Positions 210-11,710 of a DNA stretch of 11,814 bases are shown here, piece by piece. The notes under the pieces are model-generated. The model was not told the DNA's origin, did no database searches, and worked only from the letters and a program-made list of their open reading frames with translations. Source of the stretch: a virus; UHGV virus genome UHGV-0249779; one strand, given 5' to 3'. Numbering within the stretch: the stretch's first letter is position 1; the number at the start of each line of letters is the position of its first letter. The translations under genes and the position numbers were made by a program.

Positions 210-890
210 TCATCGCCATTGCTCCCCAAATACAAAACCAATTTCAGCCAGTGCCTCGTCCATTTTTTCGATGAACTCCGGCACCATCTCGTCAAAACTC
301 GCCATGTACTTTTCATCCCGCTCAACCACGACATAATGCAGTCCTTCACGCTTCATACGCGGGTCATAGTTGGCAAAGTACCAGGCATCTTTTCGCGTCA
401 CCCACATGCTGTATTGCACCTGGGCCATGTAAGCCGACTTTATGGCCTCGAAACCACCGAGCCGGAACTTCATGAAATCCCGGGAGGTAAACGGGCATTT
501 CAGCTCAAGTCCATTGCCGTCACTGCATAAACCATCGGGAGAGCAGGCGGTGCGCATACTTTCGTCGCGATAGATGATCGGGGATTCAGTAACATTCACG
601 CCGGAAGTGAACTCAAAGAGGGCTCTGGCGTCGTTCTCGTACTGTTTTCCCCAGGCCAGCGCCTTAGCGTTAACTTCCGGAGCCACACCGGTGCAAACCT
701 CGGCAAGCAGGGTGTGGAAGTAGGACATTTTCATGTCAGGCCATTTCTTTCCGGAGCGGGGTTTTGCTATCACATTGTGAACTTCTGAAGCGGTGATGAC
801 GCCGAGCCGTAATTTGTGCCACGCATGATCCCCCTGTTCGACAGCTCTCACGTCGATCCCGGTACGCTGCAGGATAATGTCCTGTGTCAT
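210..890 (-). CDS. exo: Lambda exonuclease (Red-alpha, 5'-3' dsDNA exonuclease)
   Basis: 226 aa ORF, near-identical from recall to lambda Exo ([20 protein letters not shown]...GFVFGEQWR). ATGA overlap with the bet stop. Confidence 0.95.
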
Positions 891-1672
891 GCAGCCACCT
901 TCTGTTCAGAGGCTTTCTGTTTCAGGAATCCAAGAGCTTTCACTGCTTCGGCCTGTGTCAGTTCCGACGATGCGCGAATGTCGCGGCGAAATATCTGGGA
1001 ACAGAGCGGCAATAAGTCGTCATCCCATGTTTTGTCCAGGGCAATCAGCAGAGTGTTAATCTCCTGCATGGTTTCATCGTTAACCGGAGTGATGTCGCGT
1101 TCCGGCTGACGTTCTGCAGTGTATGCGGTATTTTCGACAATGCGCTCGGCTTCATCCTTGTCATAGATACCAGCAAATCCGAAGGCCAGACGGGCACACT
1201 GAATCATGGCTTTATGACGTAACATCCGTTTGGGATGCGACTGCCACGGCCCCGTGATTTCTCTGCCTTCGCGGGTTTTGAATGGTTCGCGGCGGCATTC
1301 ATCCATCCACTCGGTAACGCAGATCGGATGATTACGGTCCTTGCGGTAAATCCGGCATGTGCAGGATTCATTGTCCTGCTCAAAGTCCATGCCATCAAAC
1401 TGCTGGTTTTCATTGATGATACGGGACCAGCCATCAACGCCCACCACCGGAACGATGCCGTTCTGCTTGTCAGGGAAGGCGTAAATTTCTTTCGTCCACG
1501 GATTAAGGCCGTACTGGTTGGCGACGATCAACAATGCGATGAACTGCGCATCGCTGGCATCACCTTTAAATGCCGTCTGGCGAAGAGTGGTGATCAGTTC
1601 CTGTGGGTCGACAGAATCCATGCCGACACGTTCAGCCAGCTTCCCTGCCAGCGTTGCGAGTGCTGTACTCAT
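887..1672 (-). CDS. bet: Lambda Bet (Red-beta) single-strand annealing recombinase
   Basis: 261 aa ORF, near-identical from recall to lambda Bet ([66 protein letters not shown]...). Confidence 0.95.
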
Positions 1673-1677
1673 CCGTT

Positions 1678-1974
1678 TTATACCTCTGAATCAATATCAA
1701 CCTGATGGTGAGCAATGGTTTCAACCATGTACCGGATGTGTTCTGCCATGCGCTCCTGAAACTCAACATCGTCATCAAACGCACGGGTAATGGCTTTTTT
1801 GCTGACCCCGTGGCGTTGCAAATGATCGATGCATAGCGATTCAAACAGGTGCTGGGGCAGGCCTTTTTCCATGTCGTCTGCCAGTTCTGCCTCTTTCTCT
1901 TCACGGGCGATCTGCTGGTAGTGACGCGCCCAGCTCTGAGCCTCAAGACGATCCTGAATGTAATAAGCGTTCAT
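1678..1974 (-). CDS. gam: Gam, RecBCD (host nuclease) inhibitor, 98-aa short form
   Basis: [21 protein letters not shown]...[10 protein letters not shown] matches the lambda GamS sequence from recall. AGGAG lies 7 nt upstream of the ATG. Confidence 0.9.
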
Positions 1975-2049
1975 GGCTGAACTCCTGAAAATGGCTGTGA
2001 AAATATCGCCCGCGAAATACCAGGCTGATTAGGAAAACAGGAAAGGGGA

Positions 2050-2340
2050 TTAGTGATTCAGGCCGTTACCGCGTCCGTCGAGAAAAACTTCCACGAGCAA
2101 ATCACGGGTATAAGTGCGCTCGATGCCGCGATGCAGATATAGCCGTCCGCGTAAATTAGCTGATGCAGTCCAGGTACCATCTTTGTGTTTGACCAGCATT
2201 CCTGGCATGACCGCACCTCGATTAACGGTCTGCGTTCCGTAATGTTGATGAACCATAAAAACTCCTGCCCGTAAGCTGGGCTGCTGAACATATAGAGACT
2301 TCTGCGCGTATTCAGGCGGTGGATGGCCGCCGGTTGTCAT
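2050..2340 (-). CDS. Hypothetical early-left (PL operon) protein of unknown function; the ORF is open up to 2460 but only via a TTG with no SD
   Basis: The open frame 2050..2460 lies between the putative PL and gam. The first ATG is at 2340 (MTTGGHPPPEYAQ...) with GAGG about 10 nt upstream. No family recognised. It occupies the kil/cIII position. Confidence 0.45.
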   Translation of the reverse strand: MTTGGHPPPEYAQKSLYVQQPSLRAGVFMVHQHYGTQTVNRGAVMPGMLVKHKDGTWTASANLRGRLYLHRGIERTYTRDLLVEVFLDGRGNGLNH

Positions 2341-2541
2341 AACTAAGCCGCCTCGTTGAAGCGACTGAGGTATGAGGTGTTGAGTTGATTTCAGCTGGTC
2401 ACACCGACGTTCACACGTCCGTTTCACCCCTCGCACTCCCCGTAGCCTGCTGAAATTCAAGCTGCAGATCTAAGCGGTCATCGCAACGGTGAAGCGGTAA
2501 ATCAGAAGATTGCCGGATTCCTGTGCCGTTGTGATGGATTT

Positions 2542-2570
2542 ATAATACTTATTGCTATTAATCATATCAA
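2542..2570 (-). promoter_or_regulatory. Putative PL promoter with embedded OL operator
   Basis: Minus strand reads -35 TTGATA (2570..2565), a 17-nt spacer, then -10 TATTAT (2547..2542). The spacer TTAATAGCAAT closely resembles the PR spacer TTAATGCGCATT at 3995..4006. Confidence 0.5.
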
Positions 2571-2785
2571 TACGTATGGGTATAAATCGATAGCATTTGT
2601 TGTTATGCTGTTGATACTGAAAAGAATTTAATGTTGAGGTTTTTTGTGACATTCGACTCAAAATGGATTTTGCAATTAAATAACCAATTGATAACAATGA
2701 AAACATCACGGAGAACTAGATAGGCCAAATTACTTGCCACGAAGATAGTTGTAAGCGTTGATAACAATGGTATTGAGGAGGGATA

Positions 2786-2808
2786 CCCCCGACAATTGCG
2801 TCAGGGGG
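2786..2808 (-). terminator. GC-rich stem-loop immediately 3' of the lipoprotein gene (possible terminator or RNA-stabilising hairpin for the cI-lipoprotein transcript)
   Basis: CCCCCGAC-aattgc-GTCAGGGGG inverted repeat with one bulge. No clear U-tract on the minus strand, hence low confidence. Confidence 0.3.
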
Positions 2809-2814
2809 GAGGGA

Positions 2815-3195
2815 TTATTGGGCTTTAATGTAATTTTTCAACTTTGCAGTTTGCTCTACAGCGCTAGGAATGCATCCAAACATATTTGCGCATGAGGTTT
2901 GAACAACAATTTCGTTCTTATCGTTTCCTAAAGGTGTTTTTACAACCTGATATCCAAGCACGGCACTATTTCCAATAGGAGTGTATGTGGAAATTACCGT
3001 TTCATCTGCCATCTGAATTTTCCAACCAGAATTCATTGCTATCCAAGCTTTGGCTCTCGACCAATATGTATCGCATTGCTCTTTACCTTGACAGTAAACT
3101 GGTTGTTGAGCTTGTGCGGCAATTTGGGGATCTATTTTCTGAGCACATCCAGAGATGCTAATCAGAATAGCTGCTGTAACGAATAGTTTTCTCAT
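2815..3195 (-). CDS. Putative lipoprotein of unknown function, immediately downstream of and co-oriented with cI (rex-position moron)
   Basis: Starts MRKLFVTAAILISISGC: a signal peptide with lipobox ISGC. AAGGA lies 7 nt upstream of the ATG at 3195; the ATG at 3201 has too short a spacer. The gene is AT-rich relative to its phage neighbours. The 41-bp gap to the cI stop suggests co-transcription from PRM. Confidence 0.7.
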   Translation of the reverse strand: MRKLFVTAAILISISGCAQKIDPQIAAQAQQPVYCQGKEQCDTYWSRAKAWIAMNSGWKIQMADETVISTYTPIGNSAVLGYQVVKTPLGNDKNEIVVQTSCANMFGCIPSAVEQTAKLKNYIKAQ

Positions 3196-3242
3196 TGACA
3201 TTTCCTTTGTTTTGAATATACAACAAATAAATTGGCAAAAAA

Positions 3243-3935
3243 TTATCCGTGTTTTCTATATGTCTGCGGCATGCTTCCAATGACTTTACCGAAGATGAAC
3301 ACCCGGTTCATCTCGTCTTTCTCGATCGGGTCCCACGGTGAGTAGCTCTTGTTATCAGAGATAACCAGCAGCTTATCCTTCATCATTTGCAGGCGCTTTA
3401 CATGGGCTGTGTCGTCGTACAGAAACGCATAGATACCATCACCGTCGAAAGATTTAACAGTGATATCAACGAACAAAAGATCACCTGGTTCGATCGTTCC
3501 TGACATGCTGTCACCGCGTACGTTAATGATGCGGATATTTTCTGCCTTCCTGCCATCGAACATGTGACGAGCATCGTCAAACGAGTACTCAACCGAGCGT
3601 AGAACTTCTACAAACTCACGATTGATGACACCCGGCCCGGCACTGACTTCTATATCAAGAACGTCAATCTTGAAGTATTTGGAATGGCTGACAGCAGGCT
3701 TCCCTGATTGTTGACCGTCATTTCTCATCGGGCCTATGCCTGATGAGAGCCACTCTGTTCGAACACCCAATGCATTAGCTATTTCAACAATTTTTGTTGA
3801 GCCGCGCGCGTTGCCGCTTGTCAGTCTCCAGATTGTGGGTTGAGCTACGCCAGACGCCTTTGCAAGAGCGCCTTGAGACATTCCAGATTGTTCCATCGCT
3901 AGGTTTAAGCGATCAGCAAGAGTTTCTTTTTTCAT
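3243..3935 (-). CDS. cI: CI-type prophage repressor (N-terminal HTH, C-terminal LexA-like S24 autopeptidase domain)
   Basis: HTH-like segment MSQGALAKASGVAQPTIWRL. C-terminal domain carries the GDSM serine motif and a downstream lysine (HVKRL), typical of S24 self-cleaving repressors. The ATG at 3935 is preferred over the TTG at 3971. A TATAAAT -10 sits 8 nt upstream of the ATG, consistent with a leaderless PRM transcript as in lambda. Confidence 0.85.
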   Translation of the reverse strand: MKKETLADRLNLAMEQSGMSQGALAKASGVAQPTIWRLTSGNARGSTKIVEIANALGVRTEWLSSGIGPMRNDGQQSGKPAVSHSKYFKIDVLDIEVSAGPGVINREFVEVLRSVEYSFDDARHMFDGRKAENIRIINVRGDSMSGTIEPGDLLFVDITVKSFDGDGIYAFLYDDTAHVKRLQMMKDKLLVISDNKSYSPWDPIEKDEMNRVFIFGKVIGSMPQTYRKHG

Positions 3936-4045
3936 AAGTTTTAATTTATACGCTTGCGTATTGATGGTCAAAACACGTTTTGCTATTGATTGGGTTAATG
4001 CGCATTGCTATTATCTATTCATTGTAATACCAATAGGAATTGATA
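3936..4045. promoter_or_regulatory. Divergent immunity control region (OR operators, PR and PRM)
   Basis: PR candidate on the plus strand: -35 TTGATT (3986..3991), 17-nt spacer, -10 TATTAT (4009..4014). Three palindromes: TACGCttGCGTA (3949..3960), CAAAACacGTTTTG (3969..3982) and the perfect AATGCGCATT (3997..4006) inside the PR spacer. PRM -10 TATAAAT lies on the minus strand at 3950..3944. Confidence 0.6.
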
Positions 4046-4273
4046 ATGACAAATCAAACCATTCAACTCGCAATCAGTATTACAGGTAGTCAAAAACGAC
4101 TGGCAGATCTCTGCGGTGTAGCCCAACCCACGGTTTGGCGTTGGCTACACGGTGGCGGAATTGATGCCCGCTATGTAATGAAAATTGTCTCAGCCACTGG
4201 TGGAAAGATTAAACCAGCAGATATTCGTCCCGACCTCGCACCATTGTTTAACGTGAGTAATTCTTCCGCCTAA
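4046..4273 (+). CDS. cro: Cro-like HTH regulator (YdaS/DUF1019-like)
   Basis: 75 aa from the ATG at 4046, with AGGAA 8 nt upstream; the track's 4040 start is a TTG. The pattern QKRLADLCGVAQPTVWRW...ATGGKIKPADIRPDL resembles YdaS-type Cro proteins. First gene rightward of PR. Confidence 0.75.
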   Translation: MTNQTIQLAISITGSQKRLADLCGVAQPTVWRWLHGGGIDARYVMKIVSATGGKIKPADIRPDLAPLFNVSNSSA

Positions 4274-4303
4274 TCTGCGGAGTTAACTGATAAGGCAATT
4301 ACT

Positions 4304-4843
4304 ATGCAACCAATTACATACCAACAGACTAGCGGATTTATCCCGACTGCGGTGATAAATCGTTCTCAAATAAAACAGGTGCCAGGCCACGAAAAAATCC
4401 GTGATGCCGTCCGCGCCTGGTCGGCTGCAGATAATCAGGATGTCGTTGCCGCACTCATTGTGAATGAGTATCGAGCACAGGGCGGCGGCACTATCGATTT
4501 TCCTGATGATGTCAGTCGTGCACGCCAGAAGCTGTTCCGCTTTCTCGATAACAAATTCGATTCTGAAAAATACCGAAATAACGTGCGTGAACTGACTCCA
4601 GCAATTCTGGCAGTACTACCGCTGAAATATCGCGGCCACCTGGTTGAGCAGGATAGCTTCATGGCTCGGCTGGCTGAAATGGAAAAGGAACTCAGTGAGG
4701 CAAAACAGGCTGTCATTCTCAACGCACCACGCCACCAGAAACTGAAGGAGATGAGTGAAGGCATTGTGTCGATGTTTCGTGTGGACCCGGATCTGGCTGG
4801 TCCATTAATGGCGATGGTGACCACCATGCTGGGGGCAATATGA
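4304..4843 (+). CDS. CII-position regulatory protein, YdaT-like
   Basis: 179 aa. Motifs NEYRAQGGG and LTPAILAVLPLKYRGHL match my recollection of Rac-prophage YdaT. Position is directly after cro and before the replication genes. Confidence 0.6.
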   Translation: MQPITYQQTSGFIPTAVINRSQIKQVPGHEKIRDAVRAWSAADNQDVVAALIVNEYRAQGGGTIDFPDDVSRARQKLFRFLDNKFDSEKYRNNVRELTPAILAVLPLKYRGHLVEQDSFMARLAEMEKELSEAKQAVILNAPRHQKLKEMSEGIVSMFRVDPDLAGPLMAMVTTMLGAI

Positions 4844-7014: not shown

Positions 7015-7263
7015 ATGCACGAACTATTTGTGCTGGTTTTGAGCACCTGTGCTAGCCTCAGCAATATGTCAGGTTGTTCAGTGGAAGTAGTGAATGTCAA
7101 CACCACAAAAGAGCCGGTAAACGTCTTTTATAGCAGGAAAGACTGCGAAGAAAGCATGAAAAACATTATGCTAAATCATGCTCTATACCATGAAGTATCA
7201 GGCAGAGAGCCATATATGGCAAAGTGCGAACAAGTATTTGTCTCAAAAAGTTTAATGAAATAA
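7015..7263 (+). CDS. Hypothetical small protein (82 aa), first gene of an AT-rich insertion
   Basis: AAGGGAG lies 7 nt upstream of the ATG. Low GC by eye compared with flanking ren and ybcN. Cysteine-containing with a hydrophobic N-terminus; no family recognised. Confidence 0.5.
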   Translation: MHELFVLVLSTCASLSNMSGCSVEVVNVNTTKEPVNVFYSRKDCEESMKNIMLNHALYHEVSGREPYMAKCEQVFVSKSLMK

Positions 7264-7776: not shown

Positions 7777-8232
7777 GTGAACCTCCCACAAGACGGCATC
7801 AAATTACATCGCGGCAACTTCACCGCTATCGGCCAGCAGATCCAGCCTTATCTGGAGGAAGGCAAATGCTTTCGCATGGTGCTTAAACCGTGGCGTGAGA
7901 AACGCAGTCTTTCCCAGAATGCACTCAGCCACATGTGGTACAGCGAAATCAGTGAATACCTCATCAGCAGGGGGAAATCGTTCGCTACTTCAGCATGGGT
8001 AAAAGATGCTCTCAAACACACATACCTCGGTTATGAAACCAAGGACCTGGTTGATGTCGTAACCGGTGATATCACCACTATCCAGTCGTTACGCCATACC
8101 TCCGATCTTGATACCGGAGAGATGTATGTCTTCCTGTGTAAGGTTGAAGCCTGGGCGATGAATATTGGCTGCCACCTGACTATTCCACAGAGCTGCGAGT
8201 TTCAGCTGCTGCGCGACAAGCAGGAGGCGTAA
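7777..8232 (+). CDS. ybcN: YbcN/NinB-family protein (recombination, ssDNA-binding)
   Basis: 151 aa, GTG start with GGAGG 7 nt upstream. Matches my recollection of DLP12 YbcN ([19 protein letters not shown]...LLRDKQEA). Confidence 0.8.
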
Positions 8233-8402
8233 TGGCTACACCGCTTATTCGTGTCATGAACGGACACATCTACAGAGTACCAAATCGTCGTAAGCGTAAA
8301 CCTGAGCTGAAGCCATCCGAAATACCAACACTGCTCGGATATACCGCCAGCTTGGTTGATAAAAAATGGTTGCGACTGGCAGCAAGGAGGAGTCATGGCT
8401 GA
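8232..8402 (+). CDS. ninE: NinE-family small protein (56 aa); not in the supplied ORF track
   Basis: Hand-translated from the ATG at 8232 (TAATG overlap with ybcN): [56 protein letters not shown]. Sits in the ninE slot of the DLP12-type nin region. Confidence 0.65.
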   Translation: MATPLIRVMNGHIYRVPNRRKRKPELKPSEIPTLLGYTASLVDKKWLRLAARRSHG

Positions 8403-8685
8403 TTTGAGAAAAGCAGCGAGTGGTCGGGAATGCCAGGTAAGAATCCCTGGCGTATGTAATGGCAACCCTGAAACGTCTGTACTGGCACATATCCGGCTGA
8501 CTGGATTGTGCGGCACCGGTACGAAACCGCCAGACCTGATTGCCACCATTGCATGTTCTGCCTGCCACGACGAAATCGACCGCCGCACGCATTTTGTTGA
8601 CGCTGGATATGCAAAAGAATGCGCGCTGGAAGGTATGGCGAGAACGCAGGTTATCTGGCTGAAAGAGGGGGTAATTAAGGCGTGA
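8395..8685 (+). CDS. ybcO: YbcO/DUF1364-family protein (cysteine-rich, putative metal-binding nuclease)
   Basis: 96 aa from ATG 8395, with AGGAGG upstream ([23 protein letters not shown]...[11 protein letters not shown]). The track start at 8356 is a TTG. Confidence 0.75.
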
Positions 8686-9044
8686 ATACTTACCACATCA
8701 CACTACCCTGGCCGCCGAGCAATAACCGCTACTACCGCCATAATCGAGGGCGCACGCACATCAGCGCAGAAGGGCAGGCATACCGCGATAACGTCGCCCG
8801 AATCATTAAAGGCTCAATGCTGGATATCGGTCTGGCTATGCCTGTGAAAATCCGCATTGAGTGCCACATGCCGGATCGCCGTCGCCGTGACCTGGATAAT
8901 CTGCAAAAAGCCGCTTTTGACGCACTCACTAAAGCAGGTTTCTGGCTGGATGATGAGCTGGTCGTTGATTACCGCGTTGTGAAGATGCCTGTTACCAAAG
9001 GTGGGAAGCTGGAACTGACCATCACTGAACTGGGAGATGAATGA
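8682..9044 (+). CDS. rusA: RusA Holliday junction resolvase
   Basis: 120 aa, [41 protein letters not shown]..., near-identical from recall to E. coli RusA. GTGA overlap with ybcO. Confidence 0.95.
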
Positions 9045-9181
9045 TGTTTGAGTCTTATATGGCAGAACGTCTTCGCCGCCGCTGGGTGCGCCTGCGCTTA
9101 TATCGTTTCCCCGGTTCTGTTTTGACCGATTACCGAATACTGAAGAGTTACGCCAAAACCCTGACAGGAGCAGGAGTATGA
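9041..9181 (+). CDS. ylcG: YlcG-like small protein (46 aa); not in the supplied ORF track
   Basis: Hand-translated: [50 protein letters not shown] overlap with rusA, in the ylcG slot of the DLP12 gene order. Confidence 0.6.
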
Positions 9182-9266
9182 AGTCAGAGATAACAATCAA
9201 CTAATACTGTTTTGTTGATTTTTGCTTGTAATTGGCGTTTTGGTCTGATTTTTGTGGAGTAAGTTG

Positions 9267-9650
9267 ATGCGTGATATTCAGATGGTTCTTGAGCGTTGGG
9301 GAGCGTGGGCGGCTAATAATCATGAAGATGTGACCTGGTCGTCCATTGCCGCCGGTTTTAAGGGATTAATTCCTTCAAAAGTAAAATCTCGCCCGCAATG
9401 TTGTGACGATGACGCGATGATCATTTGCGGGTGCATGGCCCGTCTGAAAAAGAACAACAGCGATTTGCACGATTTATTAGTAGATTATTATATAGTCGGT
9501 ATGACATTCATGTCACTGGCAGGTAAGCATTGCTGCTCTGATGGTTATATCGGGAAAAGGTTACAAAAGGCTGAGGGCATAATTGAAGGGATGTTAATGG
9601 CATTAGATATCCGGTTAGAGATGGATATCGTTGTTAATAACTCTAATTAA
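9267..9650 (+). CDS. quuD: Late-gene antiterminator Q (QuuD/phage-82/21 type)
   Basis: 127 aa from ATG 9267, with GGAG 7 nt upstream: [21 protein letters not shown]...[20 protein letters not shown]..., matching DLP12 QuuD from recall. The track start at 9252 is a TTG. Confidence 0.85.
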
Positions 9651-9838: not shown

Positions 9839-10921
9839 TTAGAACTGGTAAACCATACCTACAGCAACGATATCATCGGTAGCAACGCCAGATGCTTTCG
9901 TGAAATCGCTCTTATCAATCAGGTTGATTTTGTAGTCAACAAAAGTGGACATATTTTTGTTGAAGTAATAGGTTGCACCTACATCAACATATTCAACCAG
10001 GTCCTGATCACCCCAAACACCCAAGTCTTTTCCTTTAGAATGCAGGTAAGCAACGGATGGACGCAGGCCGAAGTCGAACTGATATTGTGCAACAGCTTCG
10101 AAGTTTTGTGCTTTGTTGGCAATATGGTTATTACCAAAAACAGTCATGTTCTGGGTTTCAGAATAGGTGGTGGCCAGATAGATGTTGTTCGCATCATATT
10201 TCAGACCAGCTGCCCATACTTCAGCATTTTGACCAGAAGCATTCAGACCGTTGTTACCGTAGATAACCTGATTATTAGTGCGATCAGATTTAGCATAGGT
10301 TGCACCCACGCCGAATCCTTCATACTCATAAGTAGTTGAGAAACCGAAACCATCGCCATTAGCTTCAGTTACTTCATTTCGGTCATTTTTGCCCTGATAC
10401 TGAGCTGCAAAGTTCAGGCCATCAACCAGACCAAAGAAGTCGTTGTTACGATAAGTTGCAACACCTGTGGTGCGACCAGTCATGAATACATCTGTTTGGG
10501 TCCAGGTATCGCCACCGAATTCTGGCAGAACGTCGGTCCATGCACCGATGTCGTATGCTACACCGTAGTTACGGCCGTAATCGATGGAGCCGTAGTCACC
10601 GAATTTCAGGCCAGCGAAGGCAAGACGGGTTTTATCTTTGGAGGAACCTTGAGATTCAGCGCGGTTGCCTTTGAATTCATATTCCCACTGACCGAAACCA
10701 GTCAGTTGATCGTTGATTTGGGTTTCACCTTTGAAGCCAAGACGGGCATAAGTAGTATCACCATCATCTGCATCATTAGAGGAGAAGTAGTGCTTAGCAT
10801 TAACTTTCCCGTACAGATCCAGCTTGTTACTGTCTTTATTATAAATTTCAGCTGCCTGAGCAGACATCGCCATCAGTACTGATGCAGCTACAGCAGAAAT
10901 TGCCACTGTTAATTTTTTCAT
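9839..10921 (-). CDS. nmpC: Outer-membrane general porin of the OmpC/OmpF family, prophage-borne (NmpC/Lc type), apparently intact
   Basis: 360 aa. Signal peptide [23 protein letters not shown] followed by AEIYNKD...; C-terminal ...VGMVYQF with terminal Phe; a beta-barrel-like alternating aromatic/Gly composition. Location between Q and the holin, antisense, matches DLP12 nmpC and the PA-2 lc gene. Confidence 0.9.
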
Positions 10922-11349: not shown

Positions 11350-11382
11350 AAACCCGCCGTAGAGCGGGTTTTTCCATTTTTT
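11350..11382 (+). terminator. Rho-independent terminator-like hairpin about 110 bp upstream of the holin gene
   Basis: AAACCCGC-cgtaga-GCGGGTTT followed by TTCCATTTTTT on the plus strand. Confidence 0.55.
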
Positions 11383-11494: not shown

Positions 11495-11710
11495 ATGAAA
11501 TCCATGGATAAGTTAACAACGGGTGTCGCCTATGGCACCTCAGCAGGTAGTGCCGGGTACTGGTTTTTACAGCTGCTAGATAAAGTCACGCCCTCACAGT
11601 GGGCGGCAATTGGAGTGCTGGGTAGCCTGGTATTTGGCCTGCTGACGTACCTGACAAACCTTTATTTCAAGATTAAAGAAGACAAGCGTAAGGCTGCACG
11701 GGGAGAGTAA
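11495..11710 (+). CDS. essD: Class II holin of the phage 21 S type (pinholin, EssD-like), with dual start
   Basis: 71 aa, [26 protein letters not shown]...[33 protein letters not shown], matching S21/EssD from recall. Met1 and Met4 give the 71-aa and 68-aa products. GAGGTGGGG upstream of the ATG. Confidence 0.9.

Follow-up and report, generated by a model that had tools for sequence, protein, structure and literature searches.

Phage lambda needs N, and its N-independent growth requires the removal of terminators, as in the nin5 deletion. HK022 and HK639 are lambdoid phages without N, a property that they share with the prophage described here. The Bievrevirus phages 4A7 (NC_049946) and 4C10 (LR595861) are inducible, and have been titrated as plaque-forming units (bioRxiv 10.64898/2026.05.26.727859). 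In the Rac prophage, the protein KilR has been shown to block cell division, a block that is relieved by excess FtsZ (as cited in PMC5793797), and it is also reported to be a dual inhibitor of division and elongation (PMC12482147). In these papers (PMC5793797, PMC12482147) the division block is shown by experiment for Rac KilR only.

The DNA analysed here is the virus genome UHGV-0249779, a stretch of 11,814 nt referred to below as the window, and the piece under study covers positions 2341-2814. The list of open reading frames, together with family scans, identifies the window as a lambdoid early region with the following genes.

exo, 210-890, minus strand (Pfam/PHROG family scans and ORF list)
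bet, 887-1672, minus strand (family scans; RefSeq annotation agrees)
gam, 1678-1974, minus strand (Pfam Gam, E 1.4e-64; RefSeq annotation agrees)
kil, 2050-2256, minus strand, first gene of the PL operon, within the examined ORF 2050-2460
lipoprotein-like gene (moron), 2815-3201, minus strand (PHROG 16082, E 1e-67, function unknown)
cI, S24/HTH repressor, 3243-3935, minus strand
cro, YdaS-type, 4040-4273, plus strand
cII-position gene, YdaT-type, 4304-4843, plus strand
O, P and ren, from 4840
ninB, a ninE-position ORF, HNH, rusA and a small ORF, 7777-9181
Q, 9252-9650
porin, 9839-10921, minus strand
holin, 11495-11710

In the ORF list, gam and bet are separated by 5 nt, and bet and exo overlap by 4 nt; any genes left of exo fall outside the window. 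The lipoprotein-like moron (2815-3201) lies upstream of PL, between cI and PL, and is outside the PL operon; other genes occupy this slot in 4A7 and in the LR-50 and CE0026a prophages. Positions 1975-3260 match, at 99.6% identity, prophages that sit at icd in 12 complete E. coli genomes; in the closest of these genomes an IS3 element interrupts the integrase. Set against the full 4A7 feature table, the window has the Bievrevirus-type arrangement on both sides: on the left, cI and then variable genes, PL, kil, gam, bet and exo, and on the right, cro(YdaS)-cII(YdaT)-O-P ... Q-porin-holin. Our best explanation, to which we assign a probability of roughly 0.6 as a whole, is that the early-left operon of a lambdoid prophage of the Bievrevirus type (4A7/4C10-like) begins in this region, and that this operon is expressed independently of N.

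The PL promoter and the first gene

The original prediction placed PL at 2542-2570 and noted an operator-like match at PR. Both the promoter hexamers and the repeats that tie this site to the PR region bear this out.

PL, 2542-2570, minus strand: -35 TTGATA at 2570-2565, 17-nt spacer, -10 TATTAT at 2547-2542
OL1, 2543-2560, 18 bp: direct repeat D1, tying PL to the PR region
OL2, 2568-2585, 18 bp: inverted repeat I1, tying PL to the PR region
OR counterparts of OL1 and OL2, 3946-3963 and 3996-4013

The promoter has a consensus score of 10/12 and is among only four promoter-like sites within 1900-4400. Phage 4A7 and the LR-50 and CE0026a prophages have the same hexamers, equally spaced from the kil leader, and we infer a transcription start near 2535. 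An 18-nt operator-like sequence, TAATACTTATTGCTATTA (2543-2560), overlaps PL and recurs over PR as TAATGCGCATTGCTATTA (3996-4013), and a second operator-like site at 2566-2587 is the inverted partner of 3944-3965. We read the two shared 18-mers as OL1 and OL2 with their OR counterparts, the OL and OR sites having the consensus T(A/T)ATAC-N6-(C/G)TATT(A/G). That the cI repressor controls PL through OL1 and OL2, and that transcription from PL covers a ~279-nt leader and then kil-gam-bet-exo, is well supported.

The first frame downstream of PL had been left without an identity, with the suggestions that it might encode a novel early regulator or a kil-like protein. The last of these guesses was correct. 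PHROG 294 ('Kil protein for bacterial septation inhibition') matches residues 60-136 of the 136-aa ORF with an E-value of 2.5e-38, in an alignment that spans profile positions 4-80 of 83. The NCBIfam model NF008465 ('FtsZ inhibitor protein', the Rac KilR family) aligns residues 69-136 with its positions 1-70 of 73 (E 9.5e-17), at a score of 60.8 bits that is below the curated cut-off of 92, so the product is a family relative and not a KilR equivalog. In BLASTP, K-12 KilR (b1352) is 36% identical to the kil product (E 9e-13, residues 1-59 on KilR 1-61), and Met1 of K-12 KilR aligns at Met69 of the long ORF. The ATG at 2256 has AGGAG 5 nt upstream (Shine-Dalgarno 2266-2262). RefSeq annotates the same 207-nt coding sequence (WP_000233576.1) as a phage cell-division inhibitor, and a database search with the 136-aa form returned Kil-family proteins only, their lengths varying with the start call. 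Given the PHROG 294 and NF008465 matches, neither an unidentified frame nor a novel regulator is borne out, and the Kil-family match returned by the homology search removes the former description altogether. The predicted 96-aa product does not hold either: the start lies at ATG 2256, giving 68 aa, and relatives break the frame upstream.

It is thus well supported, at the level of sequence comparison, that the product is a predicted KilR-family division inhibitor of 68 aa, started at ATG 2256 and encoded by the first gene of the PL operon. The lambda Kil protein (Pfam PF06301) was considered as an identity and rejected, as there was no profile match at E<=0.1; no Pfam family in the local copy matched the ORF at that threshold. 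PF27398.1 is listed among the precomputed labels on Kil homologues. The original finding, in the form in which it was put forward, matters little: the gene is a known prophage division inhibitor, and the near-identical prophages (99.6%) already carry it under that annotation.

The junction ahead of kil

Upstream of kil, around the ATG at 2340, there is a conserved element that also occurs in many other lambdoid phages. Its parts are as follows.

lambdoid junction element, 2311-2374, minus strand, 64 nt: covariance model R2, 87.7 bits, E 9e-20
helix H1, 2374-2338, minus strand: pairs away GAGG and the AUG at 2340-2338
hairpin H2, minus strand: GGCGG 2331-2327 with CCGCC 2319-2315
hairpin H3, minus strand: GCCC 2281-2278 with GGGC 2270-2267, followed by the kil Shine-Dalgarno AGGAG 2266-2262
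short upstream ORF MTTGGHPPP, minus strand: begins at AUG 2340-2338, within the 2311-2374 element

The order of parts is CAUACC, H1, UUAUG, ACAACC and the hairpin GGCGG-CCAUCCA-CCGCC; after a linker that varies come GCGCAGAAGUCU and a small GC hairpin beside the Shine-Dalgarno of the next gene. In relatives, H3 is represented by other stems (GCGC/GCGC, GCC/GGC) just ahead of the Shine-Dalgarno, as judged by inspection with pairs not formally counted. Across 33 distinct sequences H1 is 98.7% paired, compared with 85% for shuffled sequences and 35-51% when the partner columns are slid. Seven of its pairs change on both sides (83 cells), giving a covariation score that was reached in 0/500 shuffles. 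As H1 includes both GAGG and AUG 2340, the start favoured in the original prediction lies inside a conserved inhibitory structure.

The element is widespread. A pattern scan places it in at least 140 positions in IMG/VR loci; the stretch ~2296-2375 also matches HK225, phi80 and Enterobacter and Klebsiella phages, and the R2 model additionally finds 4A7, HK225, HK639 and phi80. Weak R2 matches, to H1 only, were obtained upstream of lambda cIII and in HK022. In phi80 the element follows the N-position gene and a terminator. In HK225 and KO-TP1 the next gene after it is either kil itself or a small gene that lies ahead of kil. In lambda an H1-type helix, CATACC...UUAUG, stands directly upstream of cIII and is followed by AUG UAU AAA UAA and then by the cIII Shine-Dalgarno; we take its position to be that of the terminator tL2a. 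Overall, the element stands at the start of kil or cIII modules in phages with N, in phages with put and in phages with neither. It is absent from Rfam, and our literature search (by the peptide motif and for N-less lambdoid phages) returned nothing on it.

One reading of these features is that the junction element controls entry into kil, with H1 and the polyproline upstream ORF acting as a translational or Rho-attenuation switch and ribosomes that start at AUG 2340 making a 96-aa isoform of Kil. In Salmonella, the mgtA and mgtCBR leaders contain proline-rich ORFs that control Rho-dependent attenuation. The strong covariation of H1, which buries GAGG and AUG 2340, speaks for such a switch. 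So does the short frame, which reads MTTGGHPPP in nearly all copies and then varies, although this conservation is partly an ascertainment effect, because the search pattern fixed most nucleotides of the upstream ORF, and selection at the peptide level is for that reason unestablished. The usual stop is TATTAA, located right before H3; it stays in frame throughout the seven main linker-length classes although the linkers differ in length, but five of all ten length classes are out of frame for it. In KO-TP1 the stop of the upstream ORF overlaps the next start codon (ATGA), which again favours the switch. Against it, GCGCAGAAGTCT is conserved in two different reading frames, which points to a constraint that would act on the RNA rather than on the peptide; the HK639 record annotates hairpins here as terminators, and lambda has only H1 and a three-codon ORF. 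We consider the switch less likely than not. It is compatible with the best explanation given above and is no alternative to it.

What the junction offers is a lead: in many lambdoid phages, and in reduced form in lambda itself, a strongly covarying helix and a polyproline mini-ORF stand where the kil or cIII module begins, and this bears on how phages limit the expression of a toxic early gene. In its most general form, the suggestion would be that 2311-2374 is an undescribed cis-regulatory RNA gating toxic early-left genes across lambdoid phages and, separately, that the adjacent 118-nt constant leader lets the group do without N. This too may be right, and we would rather bet against it.

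Expression of the left operon without N

The original prediction had found neither N nor cIII between PL and gam, and this is confirmed by scans with Pfam, NCBIfam and PHROGs. No match to either was found among the scanned ORFs between cI (3243-3935) and gam (1678-1974); the scan covered ORFs of at least 40 aa on the PL strand within 1975-3242, leaving out a 77-aa frame at 2058-2291 that overlaps kil. No N family was matched in the rest of the window either. Upstream of kil no ORF matches cIII (Pfam Lambda_CIII, ~54 aa), and the short MTTGGHPPP frame fills that slot. With N and cIII absent, the left operon must be expressed without N.

Known antitermination signals were sought as well. The reported lack of boxA stands: with CGCTCTTTA-like sequences at up to 1 mismatch, there is none on the sense strand downstream of PL or PR, and the window holds 2 matches, both antisense, versus 2.3 expected by chance. 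As regards boxB, a hairpin with a 5-bp stem and a GNRA-like pentaloop beside boxA, inspection shows leader hairpins with 3- and 7-nt loops and no adjoining boxA. The RfaH ops sequence (GGCGGTAGNNTG, up to 2 mismatches) has no sense-oriented match in the leader, with 6 matches versus 7.0 expected, and an Rfam scan of 1900-4400 at E<=10 gave no match. For put, a two-stem RNA of ~70 nt, sequences were gathered by a pattern scan in which 104 of 121 matches were true put, and a covariance model was built from 30 aligned put sequences, including HK022 putL and putR and HK639 putL. This model scores 94 bits on HK022 putL, 90 on HK639 putL and 47 on HK022 putR. Its best match in the window, with filters off, reaches 7.3 bits (E 0.57) and lies inside the porin gene, and it finds no put RNA in 4A7 or in the other N-less kil loci. 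Put- or nut-like elements, for which the original prediction suggested examining the PL leader, are not seen, with put at 7.3 bits or less and no boxA in sense orientation.

Neither the Rac kilR leader nor the KilS small RNA resembles the leader of the window, the best match having an E-value of 0.097 over 18 nt, and in the lambda PL-to-gam region only 82 nt beside gam match the window. The compared lambda region includes the ea10-ral interval, which encodes the PreS/LPR1 small RNA (bioRxiv 10.1101/2024.10.31.621285). In short, it is well supported that the phage, as judged from the window, lacks N, nut, cIII and put.

The same layout recurs in relatives. The order cI - moron - PL - leader - kil - gam - bet - exo is found in 4A7 and 4C10; in 4A7 two other genes separate cI from PL, a leader that is 98% identical comes next, and kil - gam - bet - exo follow, while a Q-type antiterminator alone is annotated in the whole 4A7 genome. 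The LR-50 and CE0026a prophages repeat the layout with different genes between cI and PL, and, besides 4A7 and 4C10, about 14 more of the deposited phage genomes have the N-less junction. Citrobacter, Kluyvera, Enterobacter and Silvania have kil directly behind a PL-like promoter, with different leaders. A left operon that lacks N and cIII is the norm in a very common and viable group of lambda-like E. coli phages. The original prediction that this phage may use a different mechanism for its left operon thus stands as regards expression without N, and falls as regards any peculiarity to this phage, since the group is large and functional. The N-less left operon is no oddity of one phage.

We consider plain read-through the likeliest mechanism, as a part of the best explanation. 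Once cI is inactivated, plain sigma-70 transcription from PL would run through a ~279-nt leader into kil-gam-bet-exo. A dedicated early antiterminator would not be needed, because a crude consensus scan detects no strong intrinsic terminator anywhere from PL to the far end of exo; on the minus strand from 2540 to 210 the scan gives three weak terminator-like candidates with stems of 5-6 bp. The plus strand from PR to Q likewise holds weak candidates only, and a clear terminator lies at 11350-11371, where tR' is expected. The tightly packed coding genes would leave little room for Rho loading, and the phage can probably dispense with cIII, as the protein in the cII position belongs to the unrelated YdaT type. 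The helix and short ORF at the junction would most likely throttle the toxic kil gene, rather than antiterminate.

The main support for plain read-through, itself an inference, comes from a comparison of junctions. Relatives with terminators at the equivalent junction appear also to carry N or put. In relatives a strong T-run terminator usually stands directly upstream of the junction (84 unique contexts of the element), and putL lies within 2.5 kb upstream in 37 of these. The 18 N-less PL-leader contexts have no upstream terminator and no T-run after H2. The HK639 record has two 'terminator' features that flank or overlap the junction, with putL upstream. Terminators and antiterminators thus appear to occur together or not at all. 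Three points count against plain read-through. First, Rho-dependent termination is not predictable from sequence, and a 279-nt leader with C-over-G stretches is long; the C-over-G profile has modest C-rich stretches, of the kind relevant to Rho loading, and is indecisive. In Rac, termination that depends on NusG keeps kilR silent (PMC5793797), and this phage could therefore need an anti-Rho device of some kind. Second, read-through does not explain the conservation of a 118-nt leader segment (28% of E. coli genomes, always behind PL). Third, the terminator scan was a crude one, and it covered the operon only as far as exo, where the window ends on this side. The leader is made up as follows.

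untranslated PL-proximal leader, 2376-2535, minus strand, with a 5' long-range hairpin at 2536-2479
constant leader segment, 2376-2493, minus strand, 118 nt

The segment 2376-2493 is found in 1532 of 5426 complete E. coli genomes (28%) at 95-99% identity, unannotated there; in all of its 39 distinct contexts, among which at least three operator types are represented, it comes directly after a PL. This could be taken to mean that the constant leader, ~2376-2535, is a new cis-acting RNA antiterminator or anti-Rho element, the counterpart of put in HK022 and HK639. Its position behind PL whatever the operator type, and its conservation across the 1532 genomes despite being non-coding, would fit such a role. 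By eye, the first 30 nt resemble a 5' hairpin preceding putL in related phages, and the window stretch CAGGAAUCCGGCAAU resembles the put stem II loop region CAGGAAGAGCGGCAAU; HK639, with the same cI/cro/cII types, has putL at the same place. However, the put model gives no match here and there are no obvious terminators to overcome. Folding of the leader (z = -0.73) is no better than that of shuffled sequence, and the consensus fold of the constant segment shows, among 22 distinct variants, only one-sided changes and no compensatory pairs, so that a leader structure is neither supported nor excluded. The high identity may also reflect the recent spread of a single module. A new RNA device in the constant leader is thus possible but unsupported, and we think it improbable.

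A further proposal, that the prophage is a defective remnant from which N, nutL and cIII were deleted, could draw on the split integrase of the closest genome and on the presence of N...ea10-cIII in lambda between PL and the homologous helix. It is already contradicted by viable phages, as the N-less junction occurs in the plaque-forming 4A7 and 4C10 and in the ~14 other phage genomes, and it extends to over 1500 E. coli genomes, among which three immunity types are represented. We regard it as very unlikely.

The least likely proposal concerns the frame upstream of kil. As originally described, the ORF 2050-2460 on the minus strand has 136 codons from a TTG, its first in-frame ATG is at 2340-2338, and the TTG at 2460 has no Shine-Dalgarno. 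The letters ahead of this TTG are 'gatctgcagc'. The frame is open for 68 codons upstream of Met69, including the arginine-rich stretch. The LR-50 prophage is ~90% identical in this region, and its frame from the equivalent of ATG 2340 reads MTNGGHPPPD, ten codons, and then TAA; CE0026a has a stop in the extension frame. Among 39 distinct sequences of the stretch from the TTG to ATG 2340, one has a stop, three a 5-nt duplication and one a 1-nt insertion, with 11 non-synonymous versus 6 synonymous changes. A coding role for the arginine-rich extension was rejected on these stops, indels and changes; the stretch is judged non-coding, and the 96-aa and 136-aa forms are not conserved. A 96-aa ORF appears because the short MTTGGHPPP frame happens to run into kil here. 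That the 96-aa or 136-aa ORF is a novel early regulator, such as an arginine-rich substitute for N, is suggested by the open, arginine-rich frame and by the frequent choice of the 96-aa form by automatic gene callers (P0002, 472 members), but this idea is already contradicted by the sequences and merits next to no credence: family profiles and K-12 KilR align only from Met69 on, the extension is broken in LR-50, CE0026a and four indel variants, the TTG lacks a Shine-Dalgarno, and other phages have a terminator, not an ORF, directly upstream of the same junction element.

Overall, this is an ordinary kil heading an ordinary N-less left operon.

Comparison with known systems

Rac KilR resembles the kil product in its small size (73 versus 68 aa), in its 36% identity from the first Met and in belonging to the same NCBIfam and PHROG family. 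Like the window prophage, Rac has an early-left kil and an immunity region with a repressor, a YdaS-like and a YdaT-like gene. The gene order differs: in Rac, ydaG, ydaF, sieB and the KilS small RNA separate racR from kilR, and in the window kil comes first after PL. The leader of Rac kilR has no similarity to the window leader.

Lambda shares with the window the divergent PL and PR with common operators, the order gam-bet-exo, 82 nt upstream of gam that are 94% identical, and an H1-type helix, which in lambda is directly upstream of cIII. Lambda has N, nutL, ral, sieB, ea10 and cIII, and the window has none of these. Lambda Kil (PF06301) is unrelated in sequence to the window kil, with no match, as is also stated in PMC5793797.

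HK639 agrees with the window in the types of its cI, cro and cII, in having a Kil gene and in carrying the junction element. It carries putL just downstream of PL, where the window has its leader, while the window and 4A7 are without put RNA; around the junction element, moreover, terminators are annotated in HK639, and none occur in the window.

Phages 4A7 and 4C10 differ from the window in the genes between cI and PL, in the operator spacers and in the first ~45 nt of the leader. They share with it the gene order from exo to holin, the place of PL, a kil leader that is 98% identical, and a Q-type antiterminator as the only one annotated.

The constant leader and the element before kil or cIII

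Two features lie between the early-left promoter PL and kil in the window, and copies of the second occur in other loci.

Window 2376-2493 (-), non-coding leader segment, 118 nt
Window 2311-2374 (-), covarying helix with the short MTTGGHPPP frame
L012 3002-3065, copy of the helix element
L016 33111-33173, copy of the helix element
L013 (phi80) 3002-3063, copy of the helix element
L239 2476-2522, copy of the helix element

Of 5426 complete E. coli genomes, 1532 carry the leader segment, at 95-99% identity and without annotation. In all of its 39 distinct contexts it lies immediately after a PL, and at least three operator types are represented. Many lambdoid phages have the covarying helix and its MTTGGHPPP frame, an element that no Rfam entry matches, at the entrance of their kil or cIII modules.

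Signals at the N position and in put-type leaders

Three mutually unrelated N-position ORFs, in phi80, Enterobacter phage ENT1 and Klebsiella phage KO-TP1, are preceded by a shared, conserved block of hairpin and SD, CATTTCTCCCGCATCAGCGGGTAAC.ACAGAGGG.

L013 (phi80) 2650-2683, hairpin and SD block
L017 (ENT1) ~2280-2317, hairpin and SD block
L018 (KO-TP1) ~2230-2267, hairpin and SD block

Two IMG/VR viral contigs (L084 and L102) have stem I of the put antiterminator RNA and then, in the place of put stem II, an rrn-type boxA, GCTCTTTAACAA; RNA-based and Nus-factor-based antitermination signals may be combined here in a hybrid.

Variable genes and late features of the window

Window 2815-3201 (-), lipoprotein-like gene, PHROG 16082
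Window 7015-7263 (+), second lipoprotein-like ORF, inserted in the nin region
Window 9839-10921 (-), OmpC/NmpC-type porin gene, Q-holin interval
Window 11350-11371 (+), strong terminator at the expected tR' position

The interval between cI and PL is a variable slot, occupied here by the PHROG 16082 gene and in relatives by unrelated genes. In the adjacent AT-rich spacer (2600-2814), the 12-nt sequence TTGATAACAATG occurs twice as a perfect direct repeat, at 2688 and at 2758. The second lipoprotein-like ORF has no PHROG match.

Related prophages, metagenome contigs and known systems

In the closest genome, NZ_CP025859 (L001 176-2631), the prophage adjoins icd and probably cannot excise, because an IS3 element splits its integrase. 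Enterobacterial kil loci were also seen on two contigs from Gram-positive bins (L009, labelled as an Atopobium MAG, and L003, as a Bacillota MAG), one of them with HK022-type operators at PL; the bin assignment of these contigs is probably an error.

The plaque-forming Bievrevirus phage 4A7 carries a porin gene in the Q-holin interval, at the same place as in the window. K-12 Rac (L141 6406-6503) has an annotated small RNA, KilS, on the same strand as kilR and ~175 nt upstream of it; the sequences of KilS and the window leader are not similar. In lambda, a reduced form of the helix element, with a 3-codon ORF, lies immediately 5' of cIII.
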